Source of the DNA: a virus
Reading direction: 5' to 3' (one strand)
IMG/VR virus record: IMGVR_UViG_3300028840_005768
Location: 64,987-106,101 of that record
DNA length: 41,115 nt
In this document: positions 1,949-34,116 of the stretch, piece after piece
How positions within the stretch are numbered: position 1 is the stretch's first letter
How the letters are laid out: each line of letters begins with the position of its first letter
Position numbers and translations under genes: made by a program
The notes under the pieces: generated by a model
The model's database searches: none
Told to the model about the DNA's origin: nothing
What the model saw: only the letters and a program-made list of their open reading frames with translations

Positions 1949-4036
1949 TTACCCATTCACTTGAGTTAGTTCGATTCGTGCCACCCAACGGATGGTCGTC
2001 GAGGCCACGCCGGTGACCGCGATCTTCAAAGAGTCATTGGTATCATCGGCGGACACCGTGCAGGAACCAAATGGCGTGCCGCTAGGTCCCCACGAGTTAG
2101 ATGAGCTGTTCACTAGGGTCGTAGTTGAGCCTGTCCGTTCAATCACCCCCTTAGTCTCATACGCACAACTGCGCTGCGATCCATTTGTCTCGCGTGCGAC
2201 GACATTGATGGTGAAGAACCAAGTATCACCATCGTTCAGCGTCATCCGCGCAGAACTTCCGTTCAGGAATAGCTCCGTGCTCGTTGCAGCATCAGTAGTG
2301 CTATTACGGGCAACCAGCACAGAAGTCTGAGCATCACCCATAGCGGCAAAACGACCAGACGCATGAGCTACTTGGCCATACAAGCCGGCCTTCCCATAGT
2401 AGCCACCAGGCACCGTGGCAACATCAGCAGTGACTTCATTCCCGTACCCGCCGCCGATAAAAACGTAATCAGCACTTGCTGTATGTTGGTACCCGCCGCC
2501 TATACAGACATAGCCTGCACCTGAAGAGACTGTGTGATCATAGCCTCCAGCAATCACACTATGGGTTCCAGCAATGCTGTGACCTTGACCGCTGCCAATG
2601 AATCCATAATCAGCAGAAACAACATTCTGATAGCCCGACCCTATAAAGCAACGATCTGCGGATATGTCATTGTCGTATCCTGTACCAATGGCACTCTCAT
2701 CACCAGAGATTTCATTGTAACTGCCGCACAGAACCCCAGAGTAATTACCCTTTGATGCGGAATTCAGAATCTTGTTATACCGACCAGCGCCTACAAAAGC
2801 ATAGAGGCAGTTCGTCGATTGAATCTCGTTGTTCCGACCACCACCAATCACACCCGCGTATCCAGCAACTATATTATTTCTCCCAGCACCAATGAAGGTA
2901 TAATAAGCGGATACGGTGTTGAGATAGCCTGCAGCAATGCCAGCAGATTGAACGCTGCTGGAAACAGTATTCGTGTTGCCGGCTCCAATGAACGAGTAAG
3001 ACCCGCTAATGGTATTGGTTGTGCCCGCCACAATTCCCGACAAGCCGGCATTTATTGTGTTGTCACCACCTGCAAGAATACCTGCATAATCGGAAGCATT
3101 CAATTCATTCCGTAGCCCAGCAACCACAGCCGAGTAATCACAATCCGAATCGATGTCTCCTTGGTAGCCGGTGACTATGCCGCATTCATAGCCGGCATTC
3201 ACATTTTCTTCACCAGCAATGATCGCACCACGTCCCCCGGATTGAACATTACTTACCCCTGTGATAATAACTGCAAAGCTCCCACTAGCAGTATTGTTGT
3301 ACCCTCCAATTATGACAGAACAAGTTCCGCTAGCACATTGTGCATCCGTAGTACGAGATCGTTGAATATCACACGCCTTGTTCCCGTATGCCGTAGTCCC
3401 CTCGTCAAGGACAAAGATCGCACCTTCACCGTTGGGTGCAATTTGAATATTGCCGTCTGTTACAGACGTCGTGATCTTCTTCCCATTGACATCCAGGTTA
3501 CCACCCAGCTTAATTGTGCCGCCGGCATCCAGAAAAATGTTGCCAGTTGCATCAACAACGGCATCCGTTCCATCAGAGAAGAGATCCATGTCACCCTGAG
3601 TCGCGCCTAAGCAAATCTTTTGATTGTCAGCAGCGACGGTGATTGAACCCGTGGTAGAGAAGTTATCCGCAGCATTGGTCCAGTCAATGTGCTCATTTGC
3701 AACAAAATCACTGAACCCATCATGAAAGGCACCGCCAGCCATTGCAGCACCGGCAGCGGCAACATTCGTAGCATCGGTCACATCAGCTCCAGCCTCAATG
3801 CCGTCAAGCTTCGCGCCATCAACAGACAAGTCCCTGCCGTCAATCAGGATGCCGACGTCAACAGTCAAATTCCCTGACAGGTTTCGAGAACCATCAGCGC
3901 GAAGATACTGCGTGTGGTCATCGTCTCCGAGACCAGTCAGCCCGCCGTGATCAACAATGGACGGATCAAGAGCATCTCCCGACTGCAGCTGCTCGATCTG
4001 CCCGGCATTCATCACAAGAGGTTTTCGTTCAGCCAT
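1949..4036 (-). CDS. Tail fibre / receptor-binding protein with YadA-head-like GGxxN beta-roll repeats
   Basis: Likely start is MAERKPLV at 4036 (AGAGGA RBS). Carries fibre motifs DHGGLTGLGDDDHTQY and DGAKLDGIEAGADVT, then many ~15-aa repeats of S/F-I-G-G/A-G-x-x-N. Confidence 0.75.
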   Translation of the reverse strand: MAERKPLVMNAGQIEQLQSGDALDPSIVDHGGLTGLGDDDHTQYLRADGSRNLSGNLTVDVGILIDGRDLSVDGAKLDGIEAGADVTDATNVAAAGAAMAGGAFHDGFSDFVANEHIDWTNAADNFSTTGSITVAADNQKICLGATQGDMDLFSDGTDAVVDATGNIFLDAGGTIKLGGNLDVNGKKITTSVTDGNIQIAPNGEGAIFVLDEGTTAYGNKACDIQRSRTTDAQCASGTCSVIIGGYNNTASGSFAVIITGVSNVQSGGRGAIIAGEENVNAGYECGIVTGYQGDIDSDCDYSAVVAGLRNELNASDYAGILAGGDNTINAGLSGIVAGTTNTISGSYSFIGAGNTNTVSSSVQSAGIAAGYLNTVSAYYTFIGAGRNNIVAGYAGVIGGGRNNEIQSTNCLYAFVGAGRYNKILNSASKGNYSGVLCGSYNEISGDESAIGTGYDNDISADRCFIGSGYQNVVSADYGFIGSGQGHSIAGTHSVIAGGYDHTVSSGAGYVCIGGGYQHTASADYVFIGGGYGNEVTADVATVPGGYYGKAGLYGQVAHASGRFAAMGDAQTSVLVARNSTTDAATSTELFLNGSSARMTLNDGDTWFFTINVVARETNGSQRSCAYETKGVIERTGSTTTLVNSSSNSWGPSGTPFGSCTVSADDTNDSLKIAVTGVASTTIRWVARIELTQVNG

Positions 4037-27858: not shown

Positions 27859-28440
27859 CTAGAACGGTTCGTGAGTGAGAGTTTGGAGAGGAGATGACTG
27901 GATGGCTTGATTGTTGCTGCCTTGAACCACGGCAATCAGACGAGCAGTGATTCGGTCAACGATCGCTTCGTAATCGTCGATGCCTTCTAACTCATCAACG
28001 ATGATCTGCACCATTGCCTGGGCAAGGCCGAGGACTGCATGTTTCGCCAGCAACAGACCGAGGTTCTGCTCGATCTTGTGACACGAAGAGACCAAACGCT
28101 CCATGTTCTGAAGCATCTGATTCAAGGGGCCACATGCGGCCAGAAGCTCCGCATCGTTCTTGATCAGATTGAACCGACGCTCGATCAGCATGTGTAGCAG
28201 AGCGATGGATTCGCGTAGCTCTTTGACCGGTTCCAACTCATCAGCGATCCCTGCCAAACGAGACCGATCTTCCGCTTTCGCCAACAGGTAGCCGCGCAGC
28301 TCTTCCCGCTCTGCCGTACTCCGCCCACCGCAGGCCCGACAATACTCGGAGCCGTGCTCAGCCCGATTCATGCACTGGTTCCCATCTCTCGCGGGCCCCT
28401 TGCAGCGGTTGGGATCGGCTGGATCTGTGACTCGCTGCAT
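27859..28440 (-). CDS. Terminase small subunit candidate (HGGxSTG-like Zn finger N-terminus)
   Basis: RCKGPARDGNQCMNRA...YCRACGGRST followed by a helical domain. First gene of the morphogenesis block. Confidence 0.55.
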   Translation of the reverse strand: MQRVTDPADPNRCKGPARDGNQCMNRAEHGSEYCRACGGRSTAEREELRGYLLAKAEDRSRLAGIADELEPVKELRESIALLHMLIERRFNLIKNDAELLAACGPLNQMLQNMERLVSSCHKIEQNLGLLLAKHAVLGLAQAMVQIIVDELEGIDDYEAIVDRITARLIAVVQGSNNQAIQSSPLQTLTHEPF

Positions 28441-28597
28441 GAGACCACCGCGTCAACTGAGAAGGGAAAGAGAGCGTCTCCCATACACACATACTATAGG
28501 CAAAATCCGACATTTTACGCTGAATTCCCGGGATTTCGCCAACCAAAAGCCATCTTTTCGGAGATTCTAAGATGTCCACCGAACCCAGGAGACTTCC

Positions 28598-28843
28598 ATG
28601 CGACAGTACCAGATCCTCTACCGTAAGCCCGAGACCGATTGGGTCCAGCTCGAGCCCCACATCCACAGCCGCATCTACGATCGGCCCGAAATCAACGCGT
28701 CAATTGAGTACATGAAGGAGAACTGCCGTGTCGAGGGGATGGCGATCCGGTTGGAAGCGGAACTCTTCAACCTCATTGCCTGCGACAAACCCAAACTGGA
28801 GCTGAACTCCTTCCCCATGGAGGCGGCGGATGCGACGACGTAG
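28598..28843 (+). CDS. Hypothetical protein
   Basis: GGAGA RBS. First gene of the coupled plus-strand operon. Confidence 0.6.
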   Translation: MRQYQILYRKPETDWVQLEPHIHSRIYDRPEINASIEYMKENCRVEGMAIRLEAELFNLIACDKPKLELNSFPMEAADATT

Positions 28844-29342
28844 ACGTACCCCCAAGCCGGCGCCCAAGCCTGCGGCCAAACCGCAGCTCCGCATGCAGAT
28901 CACCTACGAGTGTCGGGTCCATCATCAAGACCTGGAGGCATTCTTGGCCCAAGTCTACGGGACCGTTGGCTACGACGTCCTCCGGGCCACAGGTGTTTCC
29001 CGCGGCATGATCCCTGAATTCATCGTAACCGGAACCCTTCCGCCAGCCACCAACATTGAACAGCAGGCCGACGCAATCCGGCGGGGGCGGAGAACACAGA
29101 ATCTCCACCTGGTCTTGAACGTCCTCTGCCAGGACGGGTTCATTCCCGCCGGCAAGTATGTGATCGACACCACCAAACGTGAAAGTCCGATCGTCGTTTA
29201 CACGCGACTGCTCAATACGACCCATGACCCGAATCACCCCCGATGTCTCGCCTTCAAACGCAAACATCAGGGCAACACTCAGTTTATGAAACGCGCCGCC
29301 ATTCTCGATCGCAGAGCCAACCAGGAACAAAGGGATGTATGA
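28830..29342 (+). CDS. Hypothetical basic protein
   Basis: GGAGG RBS. Overlaps both neighbours. Confidence 0.6.
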   Translation: MRRRRRTPKPAPKPAAKPQLRMQITYECRVHHQDLEAFLAQVYGTVGYDVLRATGVSRGMIPEFIVTGTLPPATNIEQQADAIRRGRRTQNLHLVLNVLCQDGFIPAGKYVIDTTKRESPIVVYTRLLNTTHDPNHPRCLAFKRKHQGNTQFMKRAAILDRRANQEQRDV

Positions 29343-29688
29343 AGAACACGTCCTTGGCCACTACCAAGTACCATATCACCGCGGCCGTCTATACAAACCG
29401 ACCCATCGTGGCACCGCGGTCAGCACAGTCTGTGGAGATCACGTAACCATAGAACTTCACATTGCCAATGACCAAATTGGCAGTATTGCGTGGGATGGGT
29501 ATGGCTGCTGTTTCTCACAAGCAGCCGCCTCGATGCTCGTCAAGCATCTCCATGGAAGGGAGTCTTCCACCATTGATCAACTCAATGAAGCGGACATGTT
29601 CCGACTCTTTCAAGCTGATGTCCCCGATGTTCGGAGACAATGTGTCCTTGTTGCTTATCACGCCTTGAAGAACCTGGAGACAGTCTGA
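29335..29688 (+). CDS. sufU: SufU/IscU-like Fe-S cluster scaffold (NifU_N family)
   Basis: HYQVPYHRG, VCGD, GCCFSQAAASM and RRQC carry the three conserved Cys plus the Asp. Confidence 0.85.
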   Translation: MYEEHVLGHYQVPYHRGRLYKPTHRGTAVSTVCGDHVTIELHIANDQIGSIAWDGYGCCFSQAAASMLVKHLHGRESSTIDQLNEADMFRLFQADVPDVRRQCVLVAYHALKNLETV

Positions 29689-29996
29689 TGAGCATCCAGA
29701 CACCAGACGACTGGTGGAACCTTGTTGATCAAAACTGGGATTACCTGGTCAGCATCATCGGGCATCTGATGGTTCTTGGATTCCCGGCCTTCGAGACACC
29801 AGGTGATTCCGAATCGCCAGCGACCGGTCGCAGCATCCGGGAAGAGATCGTCCACCTGAAAGAGACTCGCAATCAGAAGCTCGCTCGCTATTTCCATGCA
29901 GCCTGGGGACTGGCCTCAGACGCTTACGCCTGGAGCGTCCCTGGTTGGGGCGCTCTCTGTGATCTTTGTTCCGAGGAATGGGTATTTCATCAATGA
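29688..29996 (+). CDS. Hypothetical Trp-rich protein
   Basis: TGATG coupling at 29686-29690 and a GGAG RBS. C-terminal CDLC. Confidence 0.6.
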   Translation: MSIQTPDDWWNLVDQNWDYLVSIIGHLMVLGFPAFETPGDSESPATGRSIREEIVHLKETRNQKLARYFHAAWGLASDAYAWSVPGWGALCDLCSEEWVFHQ

Positions 29997-30847
29997 AGAC
30001 GCACACCTTCTCCATCGTCGTTGGCACAGCCGCTTGCAACGCCGACTGTCCGTACTGCGTCAGCAAAATGACGCGAACGGCGGCCGGCAGACTGGACGTG
30101 AATTGGCGCCGCTTCCGCACTGCCTGCAACATGGTCTGCCACGCAAGCGACGGGTTGATCAGCGTCCTTCTGACCGGGAAGGGTGAACCATTGCTCTTCC
30201 CAGAATTGATCAGTGATTACTTGCGGGAAATGCAAGCGTACGCTTTCCCGTTGATTGATCTGCAGACAAACGGCATTCTCATCGAGCACAGCCACGAGCA
30301 GCTCAAGCATTGGAGAGATCAGGGTCTCACTCTTGTCTGCATCTCCATCTGTGACTACGACCCGGCGATCAGCCGTCGCTTGATGCGGATCAAAGAGGAA
30401 TTCAACTTCTGGTCCGCTGTCGAACGAATCCACAACGCCGGCCTGGCCGTGCGTCTCAACTGCACAATGCTGAATGACGGGATCTCGACACCGGAGCAAG
30501 TGGAACACCTCATCGATCGCTGTGTTTGCCATGGGGTCGAGCAACTCACCTTACGTGAAGTCGCACGACCCAGCCTGCCCATCGAACACCCCGCCGTTCA
30601 GTTTGTCGACGAACAGAAGCCGCATGACGCCGCCCGCCGGCTGTATCACTACTTGGAAATGAACAACGCCTTCAAACTCCTCGAATTGCCGCACGGCGGC
30701 CTCGTCTATGACTACCGCAGACAGAACGTCTGCATCGGCAACTGCCTGACCAGTACCACCGATCCCAACGACATCCGACAGATCATCTTCTTCCCGGACG
30801 GACGAATCACGTACGACTGGAACCACCTTGGAGCAAGACTGTTATGA
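29993..30847 (+). CDS. Radical SAM enzyme (no SPASM domain), function unknown
   Basis: CNADCPYC (CxxxCxxC), TGKGEP and LQTNG motifs. ATGA coupling at both ends. Confidence 0.9.
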   Translation: MKTHTFSIVVGTAACNADCPYCVSKMTRTAAGRLDVNWRRFRTACNMVCHASDGLISVLLTGKGEPLLFPELISDYLREMQAYAFPLIDLQTNGILIEHSHEQLKHWRDQGLTLVCISICDYDPAISRRLMRIKEEFNFWSAVERIHNAGLAVRLNCTMLNDGISTPEQVEHLIDRCVCHGVEQLTLREVARPSLPIEHPAVQFVDEQKPHDAARRLYHYLEMNNAFKLLELPHGGLVYDYRRQNVCIGNCLTSTTDPNDIRQIIFFPDGRITYDWNHLGARLL

Positions 30848-31494
30848 ATTACACCAAAGAGGACATCGCTGCCGCCCTGGACCTGGCCGTTCTCAAGCCA
30901 ACTGCCACGATGGAAGATGTGAGATGCGCTTGTGCCTTGGCCAATAAACACGGCATCAAGAGTGTCTGTGTTGCACCTGTCTACATTTGGCTGGCTGCCA
31001 GCATGCATGACAACGTGTCAACGGTCATTGCCTTCCCGCATGGTAACACGGTACCCAATGCAAAACTCGAGGAAGCCTACCTCGCAATGACCAACGGTGC
31101 CCGTGAACTCGACGTTGTCGTCAACTACGGACGATTCCTGGATGGCGACCATGACATCGTGTTTGCCGAGCTGAAGCCCATTATCACCCGTGCCAGACGG
31201 TATGGTGCCAAGGTCAAGGCCATCCTAGAGACCTGCTACTACACACCTGCACAACTCGTGGATGCCTGCAATCGTTGCATTGAAGCAGGTGTCGACTTCC
31301 TGAAGACATCCACCGGCTTCGGACGTGAAGGAGCTGATCCAAAGCGTGTCAACCTCATGCTCAATGCCGCTGAAGGTACCGACGTTGAGGTGAAGGCGTC
31401 CGGCGGCATCCGAGCTTACGCCGATGCAGAACGCTACCTCGACATGGGCTGTACCCGCCTTGGCTCTTCTCACTTCTTGGAGTTGCTACCGTGA
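30844..31494 (+). CDS. deoC: Deoxyribose-phosphate aldolase (DERA)
   Basis: SVCVAP, TVIAFPHG, GARELDVV, VKAILET, FLKTSTGF (Schiff-base Lys), VKASGGIR and RLGSS motifs. Confidence 0.95.
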   Translation: MNYTKEDIAAALDLAVLKPTATMEDVRCACALANKHGIKSVCVAPVYIWLAASMHDNVSTVIAFPHGNTVPNAKLEEAYLAMTNGARELDVVVNYGRFLDGDHDIVFAELKPIITRARRYGAKVKAILETCYYTPAQLVDACNRCIEAGVDFLKTSTGFGREGADPKRVNLMLNAAEGTDVEVKASGGIRAYADAERYLDMGCTRLGSSHFLELLP

Positions 31495-32030
31495 ACAGAC
31501 TTGCAGGCATGCGTGGCTACTTGTGTGGCGCCATGGACCGTGTCGACGACGGCGGCATCGGTTGGCGTCGGCGTCTCAAGCATGAGCTTGAAGACCTGAA
31601 TGTTCATTGGTTGGATCCCACACGAAAGCCCATCGATATCGGCATCGAAGACTTGGAAAATCGCCAGTTACGCCGTGACAACAAACATCAAGGCGACTTC
31701 GACTCTGTCCGTCGAGAGATGAAAATTGTCCGGTGTGTTGATCTACGAATGGTTGACATCTGTGACTTCATGCCGGTGCGCATCGATCTGGATGTCCATG
31801 CCTGTGGCACCTACGAAGAGATCACGACGGCGAACCGACAGAAGAAGCCGATCCTCGCGCATGTTGTCCAAGGAAAGGAAAACGCCCCCGACTGGCTCTT
31901 TGGGATGCTCCCGCACGAATTGATCTTCTCAACAGAAGATGAAGTGTGCGCCTACCTCCGACACATCGCCCACACCCCCGACATCAACACTCTCAACCGC
32001 TGGTACTTCTTCAACTTCTGTGGTGAATGA
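31491..32030 (+). CDS. Nucleoside 2-deoxyribosyltransferase / nucleotide N-glycosidase family protein
   Basis: YLCGAM, WR, LDP, DLRMVD and GTYEE (nucleophile Glu region), KKP motifs. Confidence 0.78.
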   Translation: MNRLAGMRGYLCGAMDRVDDGGIGWRRRLKHELEDLNVHWLDPTRKPIDIGIEDLENRQLRRDNKHQGDFDSVRREMKIVRCVDLRMVDICDFMPVRIDLDVHACGTYEEITTANRQKKPILAHVVQGKENAPDWLFGMLPHELIFSTEDEVCAYLRHIAHTPDINTLNRWYFFNFCGE

Positions 32031-32533
32031 TGAAGAACACTTGGTTCACCGCAGACACCCACTTCGATCACGAAGGCATCTTCGAGCATATCCCCGAGCG
32101 CGTCACCGCCTTCCATGACGTGCTTGAAATGGGAACGGCATTCGTCGATGGGATCAATGCTTACGTGAAGCGAGGCGATCGATTGATCCACCTCGGGGAC
32201 TTCTGTTGGAGAGCACATCGCGCCGGACACTGGAGACAACGCCTCAACGTCCGCGAACTGTGGGTCTGCCAAGGAAATCACGACGCCTCATCCCTGCGAC
32301 GGCATGTCTCACGGATGGAGTTGATGATCTTCTTCCAGAACTTGCACCTCAGCCACTACCCGTTGGCCTGCTGGCACAAGAAGTACACAGGTGGGCTCCA
32401 TCTGCACGGACACAGCCACGGTCGGATGCAAACGATACCAGGTCGGCTCGACGTCGGCATCGATCCGATCTTCCGGCTGACAGGCGAGTGGCGGCCGATC
32501 CATCTTGACGAGGTTCTCGAACAATGCCGATGA
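32027..32533 (+). CDS. Calcineurin-like metallophosphoesterase
   Basis: DTH, LGDF, GNHD, SHYP, HGHSH and DVGID motifs. Confidence 0.92.
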   Translation: MMKNTWFTADTHFDHEGIFEHIPERVTAFHDVLEMGTAFVDGINAYVKRGDRLIHLGDFCWRAHRAGHWRQRLNVRELWVCQGNHDASSLRRHVSRMELMIFFQNLHLSHYPLACWHKKYTGGLHLHGHSHGRMQTIPGRLDVGIDPIFRLTGEWRPIHLDEVLEQCR

Positions 32534-32895
32534 AGCGATGCCCAAGCTGCAGGGCAGAACACGGCGCCCGCAAGCTCGTCTGTGACTGCGGCCACGACTT
32601 CGGATGCAAACGAGCGACCAAACGGCACCCGCTCTATCCCGAGCCAGGTGGCTGGGTACTCGACCAGGTCCGTGGCCTGCCCGAACTGCCGCCGCCGGAT
32701 CCACTCCCGCGCGGCCCTGTCAGTGCTTCTGCCGTGAAAGAACACGTCTCGTTTGAAGGCCTTGGCTTCTGCATCTACTCCTACATCCCGGCGGATCGAA
32801 TCACGGACGCCAAGCTGAAGAGATTGTGGACCAAGGCGCGAGCCGCCATGCAAGAGATCGTTGAGTACCTGGAGACTGTTGACTATGACGCTTGA
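32530..32895 (+). CDS. Zn-ribbon hypothetical protein
   Basis: KRCPSC...VCDCGHDF motif. ATGA coupling at 32530. Confidence 0.65.
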   Translation: MKRCPSCRAEHGARKLVCDCGHDFGCKRATKRHPLYPEPGGWVLDQVRGLPELPPPDPLPRGPVSASAVKEHVSFEGLGFCIYSYIPADRITDAKLKRLWTKARAAMQEIVEYLETVDYDA

Positions 32896-33202
32896 ACAAG
32901 CCATCCGAGAAATGCGCAACCACACCGACCTGTGGCCATGGTACTGGCTCAGCTACGGCGAAAAGTGCTACGCCTTCGCCACAGTCGAAGCATTCCCAGC
33001 CGTCGAAGGGGACCCGTTCCCGGAGCCAGGCACAGAACTCCGGCCGGATACCGAAGGGGAATGGATCGGAGAGAACGGCACGAAGATGATCATCAACGAG
33101 ACGATCGCCGAGATCGAGCGTCAGAACGGTGACACCATCTGCCGGTTCCTTGCGACGGCGCACGCAAGACTGGTGAAGCCAGTAACAGGAGGCGGAGAAT
33201 GA
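32885..33202 (+). CDS. Hypothetical protein
   Basis: Start MTLEQA at 32885 overlaps the previous gene. ATGA coupling at its end. Confidence 0.6.
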   Translation: MTLEQAIREMRNHTDLWPWYWLSYGEKCYAFATVEAFPAVEGDPFPEPGTELRPDTEGEWIGENGTKMIINETIAEIERQNGDTICRFLATAHARLVKPVTGGGE

Positions 33203-33393
33203 CTAATGCACTGGTCACAGAATTGAAAACCCAGATCGCCAATCAGCAAAGAGTGATCGACGCAATGCTGAGCGAGATCACCGACATCACTCGAAGAATC
33301 GGCCCAGCTCGGCAGGTGGGCGGCATTCGAGAAGAACTGGAGGCATTCTGCTTCAAATATCGTTACAGACAAAGAAGCGGGGAACCATCCTAG
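33199..33393 (+). CDS. Small coiled-coil hypothetical protein
   Basis: GGAGG RBS and ATGA overlap. Last gene before the terminator. Confidence 0.6.
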   Translation: MTNALVTELKTQIANQQRVIDAMLSEITDITRRIGPARQVGGIREELEAFCFKYRYRQRSGEPS

Positions 33394-33421
33394 CTCCCCG
33401 CCCGCGCTCCTGAACGATCAG

Positions 33422-33453
33422 AAGGGCTCGCCGTCAATCGCGGCGGGCCTTTT
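33422..33453 (+). terminator. Intrinsic terminator between convergent operons
   Basis: AAGGGCTCGCCG-loop-CGGCGGGCCTTTT. Confidence 0.65.
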
Positions 33454-33461
33454 GACTTGTG

Positions 33462-33725
33462 TCACCCACTTGCCAATTCATTCGCGACCTTTTCAATCTC
33501 GGCTAACATGGCACCCATCGCAGCGTGCCAGATACGGGCATCCGTTGGTCGAAACTTGTCTTGCGGTGCCACACCGCGAAAGGAGATCCATACCTCTCGC
33601 CTCTGCCCCGGCGGCGGCTTGTGAATGTCTGCCTGGATCGTCAAATGCTTATGCCGCTTCGTATGGAACGGGGCTATGATCAGTTGTACACCCCAATCCT
33701 GGTCCGTCCGTTCAATCGTCGACAT
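33462..33725 (-). CDS. Hypothetical protein
   Basis: AGGAG RBS. Overlaps the end of the TadE gene. Confidence 0.55.
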   Translation of the reverse strand: MSTIERTDQDWGVQLIIAPFHTKRHKHLTIQADIHKPPPGQRREVWISFRGVAPQDKFRPTDARIWHAAMGAMLAEIEKVANELASG

Positions 33726-34116
33726 TGCCGGGCTCCTTGAACATGGTCGTTCGCCCGGTCATCATTGTATCAATCCAGAATGGGGTCATCCAGGCGACCT
33801 CCTCGAAATTGACTGACGCGCTAACTGTCACCCGGTCGTCCAGCTCCTCAATGACGACATGCAGACGCTTGGTACCAATGACATTGGACCACTGGAGACC
33901 GGCTTCCGGGTCCTCAAGCCCCCAGAAACAGGCATTTGCCGCCAAATCAACCTGAGAGGATCCGCTGGATGCATAACGAGCCCCGACCGCGGAAGCGGTC
34001 GTCAGCTTCTGCTGTACCTGGATCATCCGACCGAACTCGATCGTGCCCAGAAGCAAGAGCAAGAACAACGGCAACGTCACGGCAAATTCAACAGTAGCTG
34101 CACCTCGTCTCTTCAT
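33712..34116 (-). CDS. tadE: TadE/TadG-family Flp pilus pseudopilin
   Basis: RRG|AATVEFA prepilin cleavage motif (G at -1, E at +5) followed by hydrophobic LPLFLLLLLGTIEFG and A..GAR.A. Confidence 0.85.
   Translation of the reverse strand: MKRRGAATVEFAVTLPLFLLLLLGTIEFGRMIQVQQKLTTASAVGARYASSGSSQVDLAANACFWGLEDPEAGLQWSNVIGTKRLHVVIEELDDRVTVSASVNFEEVAWMTPFWIDTMMTGRTTMFKEPGNVDD

Follow-up and report, generated by a model that had tools for sequence, protein, structure and literature searches.

The 41,115-nucleotide stretch of DNA analyzed here (the window), positions 64,987 to 106,101 of the IMG/VR virus record IMGVR_UViG_3300028840_005768, carries overlapping genes for a SufU-like protein, a radical S-adenosylmethionine (SAM) enzyme, the aldolase DeoC, a protein of the nucleoside deoxyribosyltransferase (NDT) superfamily and a phosphoesterase. 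We found that DeoC and the NDT-fold gene form a true conserved module, and the sequences indicate that the pair probably degrades deoxynucleoside monophosphates (dNMPs) to the free base and pieces of the sugar. The locus brings together this dNMP-catabolism pair, an orphan copy of a radical SAM family linked to nicotinamide adenine dinucleotide (NAD) genes, and half of a SufS-SufU pair. We consider it fairly probable that the genes make up an early operon of separate modules, namely DeoC-NDT dNMP catabolism, a NAD-associated radical SAM enzyme, and SufU with a distant SufS. Families, folds, catalytic residues and linkage statistics are established by the analysis; all activities, substrates and purposes are what we infer from them.

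DeoC scored 183.6 bits against TIGR00126, with a curated cut-off of 117.3, and matched deoxyribose-5-phosphate aldolases (DERAs) of the PDB with E-values down to 4e-38. Residues K154, K184, D90, C42, S186-G187 and the R-x-G-x-S phosphate loop (R205, G207 and S209) were invariant in 20 sequences. The NDT gene was recognized weakly by hidden Markov model (HMM) search (Pfam E = 0.024), scoring 15.2 bits against a gathering score of 28.8 for PF05014/PF15891, and a few homologues carry the precomputed domain. Its structural model (pLDDT 88.5) gave YtoQ, NDTs, DNPH1 and MilB as top matches in Foldseek and VIA; the top 10 VIA rows were all YtoQ, NDT or MilB proteins (Z 13.9–11.2), with TIR domains at 10.4 or lower. 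The triad Y10, D84 and E110 was invariant in 94 of 94 homologues, and E110 aligns with the Glu of Trypanosoma brucei NDT. Where the T. brucei nucleoside transferase carries its Asp, the phage protein has Ala104, and 90 of the 94 homologues have A, P, T or S. An uncharged pocket is the mark of 5'-phosphate-binding hydrolases including DmtZ, and dNMP hydrolysis by such enzymes has been assayed via DeoC coupling (PMC12884076). The phage NDT has neither Asp nor Asn at the 5'-OH binding position, which leaves room for a phosphate, the feature used to recognize dNMP N-hydrolases in that study.

The linkage of the two genes is tight. Among dereplicated phage-type DeoC loci with enough flanking DNA, the NDT gene lay at most 800 bp downstream of DeoC in 48 of 48, and a radical SAM gene was nearby in 19 of the 48. 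A DeoC-seeded scan, which avoids bias toward NDT, placed NDT beside all 14 phage-type DeoC genes; two distant DeoC genes (27–31% identity) had no NDT. The pair persists in several different neighbourhoods of 39–64% G+C, and many of the DeoC-NDT relatives are proviruses. A preliminary description of the window had claimed the coupling of NDT to DeoC and the features of a dNMP N-glycosidase in NDT, and the linkage, the triad and the uncharged position argue for both. In the mechanism that we propose, NDT would cleave the N-glycosidic bond of a dNMP via a Glu110 intermediate, giving the base and deoxyribose 5-phosphate, and DeoC would split the latter into glyceraldehyde 3-phosphate (G3P) and acetaldehyde. 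The dNMPs would probably be released from host DNA, and the freed base would re-enter ribonucleotide salvage. Of the options in the preliminary description, recycling of host deoxynucleotides is the best fit for the DeoC-NDT pair. As variants of the arrangement, L172 and L177 (4498-4956) have a second, YtoQ-like NDT paralogue between DeoC and NDT, and in the provirus record L151 (4549-4989) the DeoC upstream of NDT appears 5'-truncated.

The relatives offer hints on the base concerned. Strings of DeoC, NDT, a phosphoribosyltransferase (PRT) and GMP reductase occur in L163 (4361-7238) and L193 (4286-7678), and L243 has NDT (at 4001), PRT and GMP reductase without DeoC. The best match of the PRT was xanthine PRT, below the cut-off; the GMP reductases of the three loci scanned (L163, L187 and L205) were above the NF003470 cut-off. 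GMP reductase was near NDT in 15 of 35 low-G+C loci (<45% G+C) vs 0 of 52 others, and the link appears in four positions of the NDT tree (FastTree, unrooted), one of them (L163) inside the starred clade that holds the window protein. The PRT and GMP reductase context in AT-rich relatives therefore points to a 6-oxopurine dNMP, and our best guess is that the NDT substrate would be dGMP, dIMP or dXMP, with the module rebalancing or cleaning the dNMP pool. The DeoC-NDT-PRT-GMP reductase string is a candidate dGMP-to-IMP route, hinting at G-to-A rebalancing in AT-rich phages. Substrate specificity may differ between NDT clades, and in the phage of the window the module may clean dIMP/dXMP or have another specificity.

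The same searches bear on the option that a modified base is made while the canonical one is purged, which the preliminary description had raised and which found no support. PurZ (PF00709) was present in 0 of 50 records, of which 17 were 90% complete or more, and a Z-genome pathway was rejected on this ground. Searches for thymidylate synthase (TS), ThyX, dCMP deaminase and dUTPase found none in this phage; DNA containing dU was rejected as well, with no deaminase found and no dUTPase-fold match (compare PMC12697855). Base substitution is accordingly unsupported by the gene content.

The genome is that of a tailed phage, 106,101 bp long on one contig and 100% complete according to CheckV; the window covers its right-hand 41 kb. 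The genome has a G+C content of 55%, encodes integrases, and carries terminase, portal, major capsid and tape measure genes, all on the minus strand. The six genes of the preliminary description were confirmed at the positions given there (Table 1), as were the catalytic motifs of the annotated enzymes. The junctions are an 8-bp overlap (29335-42), TGATG (29686-90) and ATGA/GTGA at 29993-6, 30844-7, 31491-4 and 32027-30. The overlapping run, however, comprises 11 genes (28598-33393), the six together with five unannotated flanking ones, two upstream (28598-28843 and 28830-29342) and three downstream (32530-32895, 32885-33202 and 33199-33393). Overlaps are the norm across the local early region, and therefore give no evidence for a pathway shared among the six. 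A scan of the plus strand at 28300-33800 for sigma-70 promoters and terminators found none above chance.

Table 1. Features of the overlapping gene run in the window
Feature	Position	Strand	Length (aa)	Basis
Conserved 170-aa protein, synteny marker	28830..29342	+	170	Precedes SufU throughout the phage group
U-type Fe-S scaffold/sulfur-transfer protein (SufU/IscU-like)	29335..29688	+	117	PF01592 (NifU_N) E=1e-18, phrog_8429
102-aa hypothetical protein, variable insert	29688..29996	+	102 (ATG at 29688)	Absent from conserved units
Radical SAM enzyme, unnamed family	29993..30847	+	284	C15/C19/C22, TGKGEP, no auxiliary cluster
Deoxyribose-5-phosphate aldolase DeoC	30844..31494	+	216	TIGR00126 above cut-off, residue alignment, PDB DERA matches
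NDT-superfamily enzyme, predicted dNMP N-glycosidase (Y10/D84/E110)	31491..32030	+	179	Fold, triad, DeoC adjacency
Calcineurin-like metallophosphoesterase, aq_1665 type	32027..32533	+	168	phrog_547 E=2e-34; 1xm7 E=3e-5

To characterize the conservation of the block, we gathered 142 loci with a member of the radical SAM family; in viral contigs, alignment-seeded scans succeeded where a single-sequence scan gave no match. The order 170-aa gene, SufU, radical SAM, DeoC, NDT and phosphoesterase was found in about 25 dereplicated loci, all of one phage group, in which conservation is just as strong for an upstream gene of no recognized family and for the late genes of the opposite strand; the gene order in this group is ordinary synteny. 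In these loci, variable genes are interposed between the enzyme genes. Direct adjacency, defined as a gap of up to 120 bp, was seen in 0 of 25 related loci for SufU-radical SAM, 0 of 22 for radical SAM-DeoC, 3 of 15 for NDT-phosphoesterase and 35 of 49 for DeoC-NDT. Relatives with a radical SAM protein 55–61% identical had none of the other block genes within 6 kb. Of 48 viral records with an NDT gene, searched over their whole length, 5 were found to have the radical SAM gene. Complete phages carry the parts separately: G033, G040, G042, G048 and G066 have DeoC-NDT without the radical SAM, G003 and G004 the radical SAM without DeoC, and G003, G004, G011 and G047 the radical SAM without SufU; in G011, about 15 kb separates the radical SAM gene from DeoC-NDT. 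The claim of a self-contained five-enzyme pathway is not borne out by these adjacency counts and separate occurrences.

The radical SAM protein matched the Radical_SAM domain (E = 2.9e-11) and fell below every named NCBIfam cut-off; the family exceeds 1000 proteins, with 1115 homologues collected, and the cultured phage records contained two distant matches only, at 25% identity. It has one cluster motif and an unusual TGKGEP, with conserved polar residues out to the C-terminus (Q91, R154, Q184, R188, Q244, N245, R262 and W276) and C251 as the sole conserved Cys of the C-terminal half. The structural model (pLDDT 91) matched viperin (Z 20.6, rmsd 2.9 Å, 237 aligned residues), GDGT-MAS (20.6) and MoaA (19.7) about equally well. 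As for QueE, the protein matched phrog_2076 at no better than E = 3e-5, QueE structures gave Z-scores of 9–11, far below those of viperin and MoaA, and que genes were not among the recurring neighbours. Model comparison and cut-offs bear out the earlier placement of the protein as a SPASM-less, viperin/MoaA-like enzyme outside the named families; as judged from its sequence it is neither viperin nor MoaA.

The gene context of this family revealed an association with NAD metabolism. Genes for NAD enzymes (nadA/B/C/D/E/K/M/R and pncA/B) or for an NrtR-like Nudix protein were found within 6 kb of the radical SAM gene in 20 of 31 cellular loci and in 5 of 28 viral loci outside the phage group described above, and often adjoin it directly. 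Examples are nadA-nadC-rSAM-nadB and pncB-pncA-nadE-rSAM-nadM, where rSAM is the radical SAM gene, and the family is found in both de novo and salvage operons. The de novo operon is that of L132 and L134, from DPANN archaea; the cellular loci, from archaea and bacteria with small genomes, are mostly of DPANN and CPR type, and some labels of the metagenome-assembled genomes may be mis-binned. Of the 53 residues that are conserved among NAD-linked members, 47 are present in the window protein. We put the odds that this copy has a NAD-related substrate at about even. Its target would most likely be the ribose of an ADP-ribose derivative or a phosphorylated pyridine nucleotide, from which it would abstract H, as a stand-alone copy of a NAD-associated family that plugs into the NAD cycle of the host. 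Replacement of NadB by the radical SAM was considered and rejected, as the gene adjoins nadB in L132 and L134 and occurs in salvage-only operons. An unnamed pyridoxal phosphate (PLP) enzyme of about 310 aa, with weak similarity to HisC/CobD, directly flanks the radical SAM gene in about 10 cellular loci (e.g., L119:6863-7798, L124:6730-7746, L138:5073-5993 and L110:5040-5999), sometimes with only an NrtR-like gene alongside. On the radical SAM tree (quick method), a sister clade lies just downstream of the RNA-repair genes Thg1 and RlaP (L003, L036-L041 and L056-L060); both trees are unrooted, and no direction of transfer is claimed. Taken as a whole, the preliminary description held for DeoC-NDT coupling, the glycosidase features of NDT and the type of radical SAM, and failed for the single pathway; it had missed the NAD link of the family.

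SufU scored 68.3 bits against TIGR01994, below the cut-off of 92.5, with a match spanning residues 1-86 only. It keeps C33, D35, C58 and C103, and has neither the SufU insertion nor the IscU LPPVK motif. A SufS-like desulfurase is encoded about 60 kb away at genome C1:33603-34748 (TIGR01979 408 bits, below the cut-off of 475), G006 shows the same distant pair, and this SufS is most likely the partner of SufU. In our scheme the two would supply sulfur or iron-sulfur (Fe-S) clusters; no SufBCD genes were seen in a partial annotation of the phage genome. Supply of Fe-S clusters by SufU to the radical SAM enzyme is plausible and not obligatory. Obligatory coupling was rejected on the basis of the four complete radical SAM phages without SufU named above and of six NifU_N records without this radical SAM. 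Outside the window, the SufS-like gene is directly followed by a gene for a CxxxCxxC protein of about 240 aa without a family match (both genes at G000 C1:32805-34748, minus strand, L144:13805-15748). Homologues of the CxxxCxxC protein are encoded close to DeoC-NDT in a further 21 phage loci. The protein is possibly a second, divergent radical SAM; comparison with the radical SAM family by hhalign gave no detectable similarity (probability 3%).

Several observations weigh against the explanation as separate modules with these functions. DeoC was not nearby in 41 of 88 NDT homologues, so that the dependence within the pair is one-way. The association between GMP reductase and G+C content is not phylogenetically independent; GMP reductase and the PRT are both absent from this phage, which at its G+C content has no obvious reason to destroy dGMP. 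The order of SufU, radical SAM, DeoC-NDT and phosphoesterase is kept within the clade in the 25 or so loci at 47–61% identity, despite gene insertions. The 45-member phage clade that holds the window radical SAM has no NAD neighbours, and tblastn of NadA/B/C/D/E/K/M/R, PncA/B and PnuC representatives vs this genome gave no match at E<0.01; the role of the window copy may have drifted.

The conserved order and the co-oriented, coupled state of all five genes in the window are what would be expected if radical SAM, DeoC, NDT and phosphoesterase acted in sequence in this phage group, e.g., with a modified nucleotide made and the canonical one purged, and if SufU served the radical SAM enzyme specifically. 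The NDT-family enzyme MilB does work with a radical SAM enzyme in nucleoside antibiotic synthesis. We nevertheless regard such a unified pathway as improbable, in view of the absent adjacency around the radical SAM gene, the occurrence of each part alone in complete genomes, the 15-kb separation in G011, and the failure to find PurZ, TS, ThyX, deaminase or dUTPase; proviral relatives and the integrases encoded here also fit wholesale base substitution poorly. A counter-defence role, in which the modules are chemically separate with a shared purpose, is unlikely but deserves more weight: NDT would drain dAMP/dIMP (the precursor of Kongming dITP) or another nucleotide signal, DeoC would clear away the sugar, and the radical SAM would protect or rebuild NAD in the face of defences that deplete it. 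T5 Dmp removes dAMP and blocks Kongming, and phage dNMP kinases trigger Kongming (bioRxiv 10.1101/2024.12.20.629578). This precedent, together with the dNMP kinase encoded by the present phage, the sister clade beside Thg1 and RlaP, and the purine PRT next to NDT, which would also salvage hypoxanthine, speaks for such a role. However, a single-sequence search did not find the kinase in most DeoC-NDT phages, including the complete G006, G011, G033, G040, G042, G048 and G066, and a general link of dNMP kinase to DeoC-NDT was rejected for this reason; no defence context was seen, and GMP reductase suits pool rebalancing, not signal removal.

NDT might instead act mainly as a base-exchange transferase that interconverts dNMPs for a phage that lacks ribonucleotide reductase (RNR), with DeoC mopping up the by-product of hydrolysis or, run in the synthetic direction, supplying deoxyribose 5-phosphate. 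DmtZ, which moves deoxyribose 5-phosphate between bases (PMC12884076), is the precedent, and proteins of Ghobes and Archimedes were among the viral fold matches of NDT. Class I/II RNR was found neither in this phage nor in most DeoC-NDT phages (6 of 50 records have one). We think base exchange very improbable: that DeoC is dedicated and always adjacent implies that free sugar phosphate is released in substantial amounts, and bond formation between a free base and deoxyribose 5-phosphate that is not activated runs thermodynamically uphill. Among these explanations, the operon of separate modules is the one that we prefer.

The failure of the proposed six-gene pathway lessens the significance of the locus as such. 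Phage NDT-family hydrolases have been characterized as purging enzymes of Z-base phages. If our interpretation is true, a widespread DeoC-coupled NDT in phages without PurZ, joined in AT-rich genomes by a PRT and GMP reductase, would open a new path from host DNA to salvageable bases and carbon. The dNMP-catabolism pair is undescribed but chemically familiar. A radical SAM step in NAD metabolism is not known to us, and the papers searched described none. A wider proposal, which we put forward tentatively, is that members of the radical SAM family catalyze a step of NAD metabolism not described before, a viperin-like reaction whose substrate would be a derivative of ADP-ribose or a pyridine nucleotide and in which a PLP enzyme would sometimes take part, and that the radical SAM is carried alone here to alter or protect the host NAD pool, beside an undescribed stripping of purine dNMPs to base and triose without a link to Z-DNA. 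Our literature search, which covered few subscription journals, found nothing on the NAD-linked radical SAM family or on a phage DeoC-NDT pair; novelty is unproven.

Among the remaining genes of the run, the 170-aa protein had no Pfam, PHROG or NCBIfam match, and its homologues, 41–62% identical, lie upstream of SufU in 22 dereplicated loci. The 102-aa gene was absent from all 142 radical SAM loci, and its Atlas matches were below 0.9; one homologue was found (L247, 55%), with none of the other block genes within 3 kb. The phosphoesterase is of a common phage family, a loosely linked passenger. Elsewhere in the window, a small gene at 33712-34116 (minus strand) has a candidate TadE/pilin-like N-terminus, as judged by eye, which would be unusual phage cargo. 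ARAGORN detected a tmRNA at G000 C1:11798-12150 and tRNAs for Thr and Asn at C1:48071-48144 and 49621-49694, all on the minus strand.

In comparison with known systems, both halves of a SufS-SufU pair are present in the phage genome, with the three Cys and the Asp kept; the phage SufU differs in its short IscU-like spacing, and the two genes lie far apart. Members of the radical SAM family occur inside phage Preiss-Handler/NARP NAD operons in five viral loci, in contrast to this phage, which has no NAD enzymes; the surveys of viral NAD systems (PMC9503650; PMC11662467) make no mention of radical SAM (0 occurrences of 'radical'). Viperin, of similar size and with a single Fe-S cluster, is the best full-length fold match: its partial barrel closed by a C-terminal extension matched residues 2-284 of the radical SAM model, and the beta-5 Lys of fungal viperin aligns with R154. 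This is likeness and not membership, given 11–14% identity, 29.9 bits against the NF038283 cut-off of 180, the inserted Lys of TGKGEP, and a family context of NAD operons, not defence islands. MoaA, the GTP 3',8-cyclase, is the best HMM match, and automatic annotation labels the family MoaA; however, the score was 45.4 bits against the TIGR02666 cut-off of 284, the second-cluster Cys motif, a Mob_synth_C match and the basic residues before GGEP are missing, and no moa genes were seen nearby.

On the side of dNMP catabolism, the dNMP 5'-phosphatase Dmp of T5 is likewise encoded by a phage, removes dNMPs of host origin and counteracts Kongming; it has another fold and acts on another bond (phosphate ester vs N-glycosidic), and the analogy is one of purpose only. 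DmtZ of the Z-genome actinophages Ghobes and Wayne (PMC12884076) is a phage NDT-family dNMP hydrolase found among the viral fold matches at 13–14% identity, from which the present protein differs in having Asp84 and not Asn, a DeoC partner and no Dut partner, and no PurZ in the 50 genomes. The (d)NMP N-glycosidases DNPH1/Rcl and MilB/BcmB have the NDT fold in common with the phage protein (Foldseek E ~1e-4 to 1e-3), as well as the Tyr/Asp/Glu triad and the uncharged 5'-binding residue, and the product of such a reaction would be the substrate of DeoC. Identity to them is 13–17%; the phage NDT has Asp-Arg in place of the Arg-Gly loop of Rcl and a long helical insert (55-66) and, unlike these enzymes, is encoded by a virus and genetically fixed to DeoC.

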